From: Waddliaceae bacterium
Lineage (GTDB): Bacteria; Chlamydiota; Chlamydiia; Chlamydiales; SLFE01
Length of the DNA: 15,829 nucleotides
Direction: 5' to 3'
Assembly: GCA_963783885.1 (NCBI GenBank)
Contig: CAWAPJ010000042.1
Span: 1 to 15,829 of the forward strand
This document shows, one piece after another, positions 11,930 through 13,783 of the stretch; position 1 is the first letter of the stretch, and every line of letters starts with the position of its first letter. The position numbers were made by a program, and so were the translations under genes. Under the pieces are notes generated by a model. That model saw only the letters and a list, made by a program, of their open reading frames with translations, did no database searches and was not told where the DNA came from.

Positions 11930-13783
11930 ATGAAAACTAACTATAATAATCTTACTAAATTTAATAATGATTTTGATGCGATCCGGCAAGGAGAAGCCCA
12001 AAGCGACCCTAATATCGCTAAAGCGCTTGAAAGTTGCGTGTCAATTTTAGAAGAAAGCGCTCCAAATGAGGTAGTTAGGTTTTTAAATAATGTGACGACC
12101 ATACACCCCTCATCAGAAGAAGAAAGCGCAATACTGAAGAGTATAAAAAAAATAGCGGCTTTAGATTTATGCCGTTTTTCAAAAGAAGATATACCGGGAT
12201 CTCTAAGTGAAATTAACAAAATAAACGACCCTGAATTAAAGAAACGGGCTCTAGGCTCCTGGATTTCTGAAAACAAGATTTCCATCAAAAAACTCAATCT
12301 TTCCGAAGAAGAAATGGTCGCTCTCGGTCCTTACCTCACTTATTTAAATTTAGAAGATGGGGTGTATAATGATAATACCGGATCTATTGATAATGCTTCT
12401 TTTTCAGAAGAATTTATTAAAAGATTATTAGAAAATTCACCAAAACTTTCTGGATTAAATATAATGGATAGTAAAATTGAAGGAAGTTGTTTGCAGAGCT
12501 TATCAAACAACTCTCGTTTAGTTTATGTTGGGTTAGGAAGTTGTCCTAATCTTACCTCTTTCCCGGGGCGGCTTCCAGAGTGTAAATGGTTCGCTTGTTG
12601 TGGTTGTGACGCTCTTACCACTTTGCCGGAGCTTCCCAAGTGCCAATCGTTACAATCTTTAAAATGTCCCATAATTACTTTGCCCGAGCTTCCCTGGAAT
12701 GTCAGAATTATCTCAGATTTTAACTCTACCCAATCTACAATCTTAGAGGTAGATATAGATGAAATCAGCAGCAATCCCAAAAAATATCTAGACAAGTTAG
12801 GAAACTATCTTCAGTATAAATCGTCCTTTCCCGAGGTCTCCTACTTTAAGGGCAAGGAACCTTTGGAAGGGGTTGATGAGGGAGGCTTGCGGCGTGATTT
12901 TGTTACCCGTTTAGTGAAAAACATCTATTCTGTTTCAGAAGAGAATTTTCTTAAATATAAGGAAGGTCCAAATCAGGGGGTGCTCCCGTTGAAAGATGAT
13001 CGAAAGTGCCTTCGTACATTGGGCAGACTTTTTGCTCTATGTGCTCAGGAGGGTTCTTCTTTTAAAATAGGCCCGGTTTTTGATTCTCTGCTTTTTGAAG
13101 GAATTAAAGCTGAGGACAGAACAAAGATTTTTGCTAAGATCAACGCAATCCCTGAAAGGGTTGTCGAGCTTGCAGAGTCTGCCGATGGCAAAGGGTTTGA
13201 AGACAGTATTCTGGTCAATGCGGGATTTATACTCGATATTGAAGAAGGAAAGCCCGAAGGCTATTTCGACAGCGCAAAGCACAGAGAGGAGTTGAAAGAG
13301 GAGTTGCAAAAGCAGATGAAAGAGGATGAGGCTTTATTCGTTATGAACCTGATTGCAGAAGAAATGAAGGCTGTGCTTGGCGGGCAGGCCTGGGATCGGC
13401 TGAAGGATGTCGATCTACAAAGCAGGATACAGGGTGAACTGACGAAGGATCTTCTTAAAGAAAAGTTGGACTGGAGTCAGCAACATGAGGGGATTACTGC
13501 TGAAGAAGTTTCCAAAATCAAAGGCTTTACCGAAGATTGGATCGGACGTGCATCAAAAGAAACGCTTGAGCGTTTCGTTTGGGCGGTCAGCTCGAACAGG
13601 ACGCTGGGTCCCCAAAATCTTAAAGTTAAACTTTTCCATCGCGGCCCCGATTATCTCCCCGTCGCACATACGTGCTTTTTTTCTATTGAATTTTCCACCG
13701 CTTATCCCGACCAAGAGACTTTTGACAATAAACTCAATCTTCTTCTCACAGAGGGCTTGGAGTCGGGGTTTACAATCGCATAG
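11930..13783 (+). CDS. Leucine-rich-repeat + HECT-domain E3 ubiquitin ligase, candidate secreted effector (617 aa)
   Basis: LRRs (CPNLTSFPGRLPEC, CDALTTLPELPKC, IITLPELP). HECT N-lobe motif GVDEGGLRRDF from aa 314, LERFVWAVS, and catalytic LPVAHTCF (Cys582, codon 13673-13675). The terminal GFTIA places Phe at -4. Confidence 0.88.
   Translation: MKTNYNNLTKFNNDFDAIRQGEAQSDPNIAKALESCVSILEESAPNEVVRFLNNVTTIHPSSEEESAILKSIKKIAALDLCRFSKEDIPGSLSEINKINDPELKKRALGSWISENKISIKKLNLSEEEMVALGPYLTYLNLEDGVYNDNTGSIDNASFSEEFIKRLLENSPKLSGLNIMDSKIEGSCLQSLSNNSRLVYVGLGSCPNLTSFPGRLPECKWFACCGCDALTTLPELPKCQSLQSLKCPIITLPELPWNVRIISDFNSTQSTILEVDIDEISSNPKKYLDKLGNYLQYKSSFPEVSYFKGKEPLEGVDEGGLRRDFVTRLVKNIYSVSEENFLKYKEGPNQGVLPLKDDRKCLRTLGRLFALCAQEGSSFKIGPVFDSLLFEGIKAEDRTKIFAKINAIPERVVELAESADGKGFEDSILVNAGFILDIEEGKPEGYFDSAKHREELKEELQKQMKEDEALFVMNLIAEEMKAVLGGQAWDRLKDVDLQSRIQGELTKDLLKEKLDWSQQHEGITAEEVSKIKGFTEDWIGRASKETLERFVWAVSSNRTLGPQNLKVKLFHRGPDYLPVAHTCFFSIEFSTAYPDQETFDNKLNLLLTEGLESGFTIA

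Follow-up and report, generated by a model that had tools for sequence, protein, structure and literature searches.

A chlamydial gene predicted to encode a fusion of effector-type leucine-rich repeats with a eukaryotic-type HECT domain

HECT enzymes are one of the main classes of eukaryotic E3 ubiquitin ligases, and, to our knowledge, bacterial effectors (SopA/NleL, NEL ligases and SidC) are held to copy their mechanism by convergence alone. Here, we describe a 15,829-nucleotide stretch of DNA (hereafter, the window) from a Waddliaceae bacterium of the phylum Chlamydiota (GenBank assembly GCA_963783885.1, contig CAWAPJ010000042.1, positions 1 to 15,829 of the forward strand). An open reading frame (ORF) on the forward strand at 11930..13783 encodes a protein of 617 amino acids, P0001, in which leucine-rich repeats (LRRs) of a bacterial effector type precede a predicted catalytic domain of the eukaryotic HECT type. 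We propose, with a confidence of roughly 70%, that P0001 is a modular effector with E3 ubiquitin ligase activity, injected by an environmental chlamydia of the amoeba type, and that it uses the E1 and E2 enzymes of its host.

P0001 has features in common with several described systems. With the eukaryotic HECT E3s (UBR5, HECTD3, Rsp5/NEDD4, HUWE1 and E6AP), it shares a predicted bilobal domain of ~350 amino acids at the extreme C-terminus, a DxGG motif, an alpha/beta C-lobe, an HTCF motif with its cysteine 35 residues from the end and a phenylalanine at −4. It differs from them in being encoded by a bacterium in which no E2 or ubiquitin gene was found, in its sequence (13-18% identity), in its length of 617 amino acids, much shorter than most, and in the fusion of the domain to LRRs of bacterial effector type. 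We know of no eukaryotic HECT enzyme that is fused to LPX-type LRRs. This LRR subtype is also the N-terminal part of the NEL ligases (IpaH, SspH1, SspH2 and SlrP) and of YopM, and the NEL ligases follow the same logic, in which an LRR target binder is followed by a C-terminal, cysteine-dependent ligase domain. In contrast to the NEL ligases, however, the catalytic domain of P0001 is of the HECT type, the matches to IpaH and SspH structures in the PDB cover their LRR parts alone, and the organism that encodes it is a chlamydia, not a proteobacterium. The bacterial HECT-like enzymes (bHECTs; SopA, NleL, PvHECT and VsHECT) likewise have a C-terminal, two-lobed transthiolating domain and N-terminal repeats, and they too are presumed to ubiquitinate host proteins with host E1 and E2. 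P0001 differs from bHECTs in that it matches the Pfam HECT family (PF00632) and in that its modelled C-lobe is alpha/beta. In the accessible portion of the work that compares them, the C-lobes of eukaryotic HECT enzymes are described as alpha/beta and those of bHECTs as helical (PMC10274628). According to the available text of an October 2026 review, no bacterial counterparts of HECT, RBR, RCR and RZ ligases have been identified so far, and SopA/NleL are unrelated mimics (PMC13720258). The nearest precedent is MavJ (Lpg2498) of Legionella pneumophila, called 'remotely similar' to E6AP by HHpred in the available part of its description (PMC5819833). The likeness of MavJ is one of profile against profile, whereas P0001 passes the Pfam cut-off and matches over the whole fold (Z 22); the two are set apart here by description.

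Environmental chlamydiae also encode F-box, BTB, RING/U-box and deubiquitinase effectors. As far as the accessible portions of the sources go, these resemble P0001 in carrying eukaryote-like ubiquitin domains, frequently joined to LRRs and encoded in many copies (PMC4209131, PMC4327156, PMC12591485). The F-box, BTB, RING and U-box families are adaptors or scaffold-type E3s, whereas HECT is a transthiolating class. The word 'HECT' occurs 0 times in the available text of a study of ubiquitination-related expansions in chlamydiae (PMC4209131), and prokaryotes are not discussed in that of a HECT survey (PMC3673628). No description of chlamydial HECT-domain proteins was found in a full-text literature search, which had supplements and subscription papers outside its scope. 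Proteins related to P0001 are nonetheless on record: precomputed Pfam labels already tag them as PF00632, and their source annotation is 'hypothetical protein' in metagenome-assembled genomes (MAGs) of Chlamydiia or Parachlamydiaceae. This chlamydial HECT family is apparently large and undescribed, being present in databases and undiscussed.

The frame of P0001 is open over its whole length and carries no introns. The motifs that an initial annotation of this DNA had picked out (GxDxGGLRRDF, LPVAHTCF, a cysteine 35 residues from the C-terminus, a phenylalanine at −4 and LPELP) all lie in the ORF where it had placed them. GVDEGGLRRDF occupies residues 314-324 (nt 12869-12901), in the HECT N-lobe (12737..13435, forward strand; residues 270-502, with structural alignments starting at residue 270). 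The mixed alpha/beta C-lobe (13436..13780, forward strand; residues 503-617) contains both Cys582 and Phe614. HTCF, in the context LPVAHTCF, corresponds to residues 580-583 (nt 13667-13678), which places Cys582 (nt 13673-13675, codon checked) 35 residues from the C-terminus. Phe614 (nt 13769-13771, codon checked) falls at −4 because the protein ends FTIA*. In NEDD4-family enzymes, the −4 phenylalanine positions the donor ubiquitin. Among 22 aligned relatives, D316, G318, G319 and Cys582 are invariant (22/22), and Phe614 is nearly so.

HMMER comparison with PF00632, which the initial annotation had suggested, gave a match above the curated cut-off (E 1.6e-7, 31.7 bits against 23.9). It spans residues 476-615, corresponding to profile positions 163-304 of 306. 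Because the match is limited to this part of the profile, we checked the first half of the domain independently, with a profile (A2) of the C-terminal domain of six family members. A2 matched 56 PDB sequences at E≤0.01, 55 of them eukaryotic HECT E3s; the sole non-HECT match was a ribosomal protein (E 0.007). In separate stretches, the profile aligned with the N-lobe DxGG region of E6AP (E 2e-8) and with the C-lobe of HUWE1 (E 9e-9), and its DxGG motif was aligned to those of E6AP and HUWE1. A match to bee HERC4 (P0160) was obtained at E 1.5e-5, with a weak hhalign result for A2 against it (probability 48%, 81 columns). The nearest ESM-Atlas clusters were eukaryotic PF00632 clusters in 29 cases out of 30. 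Pfam detected no NEL family in P0001 at E≤0.01, and NCBIfam had no family for the HECT protein.

Structure prediction, also suggested at the outset, points to a bilobal HECT fold. A template-free AlphaFold model of the whole protein was confident in its C-terminal half. Foldseek returned 104 matches to this full-length model at E≤1e-3, and among the matches listed all were eukaryotic HECT domains, aligned over 362-427 columns; a VIA search with the same model agreed on HECT. A model of residues 270-617, built from a 22-sequence alignment, reached a mean predicted local distance difference test score (pLDDT) of 91.9 and a predicted template modelling score (pTM) of 0.88. This model was aligned, without Foldseek, to 48,161 PDB representatives, and all 19 chains at Z≥8 were HECT E3s, the next chain having Z 6.0. 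The highest of the scores recorded was that of UBR5 (Z 22.3; root-mean-square deviation [rmsd] 4.4 Å over 325 residues), followed by HECTD3 (Z 20.7; 5.1 Å, 322 residues), Rsp5 (Z 19.8; 5.0 Å, 310 residues), TRIP12 (Z 17.8; 5.1 Å, 319 residues), UBE3C (Z 17.2; 4.5 Å, 249 residues) and E6AP (Z 16.9; 6.7 Å, 306 residues). The C-lobe alone superposed on the UBR5 C-lobe (3pt3) with Z 15.1 and an rmsd of 1.5 Å over 97 residues, and it contains three beta strands (model residues 295-300, 309-311 and 316-320). The sequence profiles and the predicted fold thus bear out the eukaryotic-type HECT catalytic domain that had been proposed from motifs.

These results bear on the idea that P0001 belongs to the bacterial SopA/NleL family, as an unrelated mimic of the HECT mechanism. 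P0001 does resemble bHECTs, as the accessible part of PMC10274628 describes them, in general features: its cysteine lies ~30-35 residues before the C-terminal end, its catalytic domain is C-terminal and two-lobed, and a repeat domain for targets occupies the N-terminal part. However, PF00632 matches above its cut-off, the N-terminal domain is an LRR and not a beta-helix, and the modelled C-lobe is alpha/beta, with its three strands and 1.5 Å fit to UBR5, where bHECT C-lobes are helical in the same partial source (PMC10274628). Neither SopA nor NleL appeared among the structural matches that Foldseek, VIA or the PDB-representative alignment listed, which does not in itself exclude unlisted families. 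We consider membership of the SopA/NleL family extremely improbable. The evidence from profiles, fold and ESM-Atlas leads us to regard the domain as a homologue of the eukaryotic HECT domain and not as a mechanistic look-alike.

The LRR region (12287..12724, forward strand; residues ~120-265) consists of a capping motif, LSEEEMVALGPYLTYLNL, and a short array that ends in two exact LPELP units (residues 232-236 and 251-255). Its repeat unit of ~20 residues is built on LPxLPxCxxLxCxxC. Compared on its own with the PDB, P0001 gave a weak match to the SspH1 LRR (E 0.0035, residues 191-266). A profile of seven full-length family members (A3) matched the LRRs of YopM (7e-14), IpaH7.8 (2.8e-8), SspH1 (8.5e-8), SspH2 (2.2e-7) and IpaH9.8 (2e-4). 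Its 21 PDB matches comprised 14 YopM/IpaH/SspH LRRs, three plant NLR LRRs and four HECT domains. Together with the lack of a NEL domain by Pfam, the A3 matches agree with the IpaH-like architecture that had been read from the sequence.

P0001 is a distant member of a large family (its closest retrieved relatives are 30-38% identical). Word-based searches for homologues performed poorly, yielding 7, 3 and 2 proteins. An exhaustive profile search over 1.84 billion representative proteins gave 2139 clusters at E≤1e-3, 792 at E≤1e-10 and 240 at E≤1e-30, and in most of the 150 best representatives the match runs to within a few residues of the protein C-terminus. The motif H[TS]C lies 28-42 residues from the end in 123 of 155 family proteins, and 98 of these 123 have a phenylalanine at −4. 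A Pfam scan covered 57 of the 113 long family members: PF00632 was found in 53 of them at E≤1e-3, with 51 reaching the cut-off. In the N-terminal parts of the same 57 proteins, LRR families were recognized in about a third and DUF4116 repeats in three, and nothing recognizable in the rest. In some members (P0091, P0095 and P0099), 4-11 DUF4116 repeats precede the HECT domain in place of LRRs; there are also HECT-only members of 349-400 amino acids, some of which are perhaps fragments.

The family is widespread in the phylum. We searched whole genomes of 401 chlamydiae sampled across it, including the genome of the window (G000), and found a family match at E≤1e-3 in 86 of them (38 at E≤1e-20), spanning 61 of the 212 sampled genera. 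Members also occur in genomes of one or two contigs (for example, G206, G053 and G252). One chlamydial family with genomes of 1.0-1.2 Mb had no match in any of its 30 genomes. A locus search with A3 recovered six loci, all from Parachlamydiaceae, Parachlamydia or 'uncultured bacterium' MAGs, and informs on no other phyla. No match was found by tblastn against 72,556 plasmids. Family members can stand in tandem (G206:C1:1037696-1041444; G043:C11:37468-40132; G388:C2:52219-58031), and one MAG has five or more of them, spread over four contigs (loci L022-L025). A HECT-profile match with an in-frame TAA (G070:C1:3912-4232) may be a pseudogene. On two contigs from IMG/VR of giant-virus size (L044 and L045; 131 kb and 221 kb), weak relatives are encoded (41% identity in the best segment, E 3e-4).

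How such a protein might act can be outlined from its parts. P0001 would be exported into the host cytosol, most likely via a type III system. The N-terminal region (11930..12286, forward strand; residues 1-119), hydrophilic and with a helical segment of low confidence, is a candidate for the part that holds the secretion signal and binds a chaperone. Its first 30 residues, MKTNYNNLTKFNNDFDAIRQGEAQSDPNIA, are hydrophilic and contain no hydrophobic or signal-peptide-like run, and the N-terminus is predicted to be disordered (pLDDT <50 for residues 1-12 and 16-29, and 38-57 across residues 1-90), in line with the hydrophilic N-terminus free of a Sec-like signal noted in the initial annotation. 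Such an N-terminus is compatible with a type III signal and not diagnostic of one. The genome encodes one FHIPEP/SctV-type type III export-gate gene (E 1.6e-224), the sole component searched. In the host cell, the YopM/IpaH-type LRRs would bind a host protein, and the HECT N-lobe would recruit a ubiquitin-charged host E2. Cys582 would then accept the ubiquitin as a thioester and hand it on to a lysine, either in the LRR-bound target or in ubiquitin itself, with Phe614 at −4 helping to position the donor ubiquitin. Secretion and catalysis are what we infer here, as are E2 choice, chain type, the host target and autoinhibition by the LRRs.

The use of host enzymes is consistent with what surrounds the gene. 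The same initial reading had noted no ubiquitin, E1 or E2 gene nearby, and Pfam likewise identified no family of these kinds among the 13 window ORFs scanned. A search of the genome, which is 88.9% complete, gave no match to UQ_con (E2) or to a ubiquitin family. Several observations weigh against our interpretation of P0001. The searches for E2 and ubiquitin families gave matches in 0 of 14 control genomes, so that their sensitivity is unproven, and the genome is incomplete. The Pfam match covers the second half of the domain alone, with the N-lobe call resting on the family profile and the predicted structure, and identity between the P0001 domain and solved HECT domains is just 13-18%. The LRR array is short and is the least confident ordered part of the model (pLDDT 54-67 over residues 181-270), and target binding could be impaired. 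The gene is missing from the same-genus genome and from the other three sampled genomes of the window's family (0/4), and is thus dispensable for this lineage. Lastly, the gene was not found in any RNA run, a result that says nothing on expression either way.

Neighboring genes bear on a different role for P0001, namely action within the bacterial cell in an anti-phage system or a bacterial system of ubiquitin-like conjugation. Bacterial defence operons with E1, E2 and ubiquitin-like (Ubl) proteins are known. Convergent with the HECT gene lies an AAA_14/DUF4143 ATPase gene (13833-15038, reverse strand), which matches a PADLOC candidate defence family, PDC-S01 (E 3e-33). P0001 itself, however, had no PADLOC match, and the genome search described above found no E2 or ubiquitin family. 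Furthermore, the 36 neighbor ORFs in 25 related loci, which are housekeeping or effector-like genes, include no E1, E2, ubiquitin or Ubl gene and no conserved partner, and the LRRs of P0001 are of the injected-effector type. An intrabacterial role is thus very unlikely, and a function as an injected effector remains our preferred interpretation. The effector-like neighbors of family members include a homologue of Peptidase_M91 ('Effector protein') and a eukaryote-type Ser/Thr protein kinase (L015:77-1465, L022:1358-3172).

The contig also encodes GroES/GroEL, oligopeptidase F (PepF), a BOF/OB-fold protein, a glutaredoxin, a GST and an MscS-type channel. These genes matter for the question of whether the HECT gene is bacterial at all, or whether mis-assembly or mis-binning has put eukaryotic or giant-virus DNA on the contig. 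Elsewhere, HECT is a domain of eukaryotes and giant viruses, the two large viral contigs match weakly (E 3e-4), and the genome is a draft of 46 contigs. However, the HECT gene shares its contig with GroES/EL, PepF and the MscS-type channel, and the channel/HECT junction is bridged without mismatches by metagenome contigs from runs of two studies (X1, 11697-11984; X4, 11752-12170), one of which may be the source sample. Matches in 86 of 401 genomes of the phylum, single-contig genomes included, also argue against a foreign gene, as do the absence of introns and the bacterial effector type of the LRRs. We give next to no credence to a non-bacterial origin of this stretch. Loose ends in the junction-bridging metagenome data are accounted for by the downstream copy of the 5' end, described below.

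The same-genus genome (G379) is 87% identical to the window from 7400 to ~11849 and then diverges, 80 nt before the start codon of the HECT gene. Similarity stops 4 nt before a promoter-like site (TTTAAA-18 nt-TATAAT; 11853..11882, forward strand), which is recognized by its match to the consensus alone (10/12) and lies 48 nt upstream of the start codon. In G379, guaA and a purine operon adjoin the channel gene, and the ATPase gene, like the HECT gene, is not in that genome at the DNA level. Because G379 diverges at this point and has guaA next to the channel gene, we regard the HECT gene and the convergent ATPase gene as an accessory islet.

Further downstream, at 15290..15439 on the forward strand, lies a dead copy of the promoter region and first 74 nt of the HECT gene. 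It is 88% identical to 11853-12003, has ATA in place of the start codon and breaks off at an insertion sequence (IS). This stretch, 3.4 kb downstream, represents either a remnant of a second copy or a scar left by recombination. The left end of the IS (15437..15829, with its start placed by BLAST) truncates the dead copy and ends the contig. The complete element, of ~1.57 kb, has imperfect terminal inverted repeats and contains a DDE transposase and, on the opposite strand, a PD-(D/E)XK_3 ORF. There are 20 matches to it in the window's genome and 19 in G379, mostly at 98-99% identity; 12 of the 20 span nearly the whole 400-nt query, and full copies could be aligned (L041, L042 and L043). At the other end of the window, positions 170-1009 hold a DDE transposase ORF (DDE_Tnp_1_3 / DDE_Tnp_1) that is unlike the IS at the right end, and a palindromic segment of ~112 nt, 82% self-complementary, lies at 1001-1115. 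With a transposase ORF on the left and the IS on the right, the contig has mobile elements at both ends.

This setting raises the question of whether P0001 has a HECT fold and is no conventional ubiquitin E3. It might be a pseudo-ligase that traps host E2~Ub, a ligase for a NEDD8/ISG15-like modifier or a decaying member of the family with too few LRRs. P0001 has two LPxLP units, compared with seven in each of the relatives P0002, P0004 and P0005. Its nearest relatives are just 30-38% identical, the gene sits in an islet undergoing rearrangement, with an IS and a dead copy of its 5' end nearby, and the sister genomes lack it. On the other hand, the ORF is intact over 617 codons, and Cys582, the HTC context, DxGG and the −4 phenylalanine are kept, as in most of the family. 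Retained catalytic motifs are the pattern expected from purifying selection on catalysis. We therefore hold an unconventional or decaying enzyme to be unlikely, and continue to favor an injected ubiquitin ligase.

At the level of the family, we hold with slightly better than even confidence that environmental chlamydiae harbor the first genuine family of eukaryotic-type HECT ligases known from bacteria, a large and old one in which one transthiolating catalytic module is combined with exchangeable modules for targeting (YopM/IpaH-type LRRs, DUF4116 repeats and others). Most likely, chlamydiae acquired the putative HECT domain at an early stage of their evolution, from a eukaryote or a giant virus, and it later spread while the targeting modules on its N-terminal side changed. 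The chlamydial family could also be as old as the eukaryotic one and not a recent loan. Given the deep divergence (30-38% to the nearest relatives of P0001 and 13-18% to eukaryotic HECT domains), we leave the direction of transfer open.

If our interpretation is true, chlamydiae have made with a real HECT domain the design of 'LRR plus cysteine ligase' that Shigella and Salmonella made with the unrelated NEL domain. A widespread chlamydial family of real HECT enzymes would correct the convergence-only picture and would extend the ubiquitin toolkit of chlamydiae by a major class of effectors. Small, soluble and modular HECT enzymes (~350 amino acids in HECT-only members) would also become available from it for studies of E2 choice, chain specificity and autoinhibition. 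Furthermore, the family would offer a clean case for asking by what route, and at what time, bacteria that share amoebae with giant viruses acquired a eukaryotic catalytic domain.

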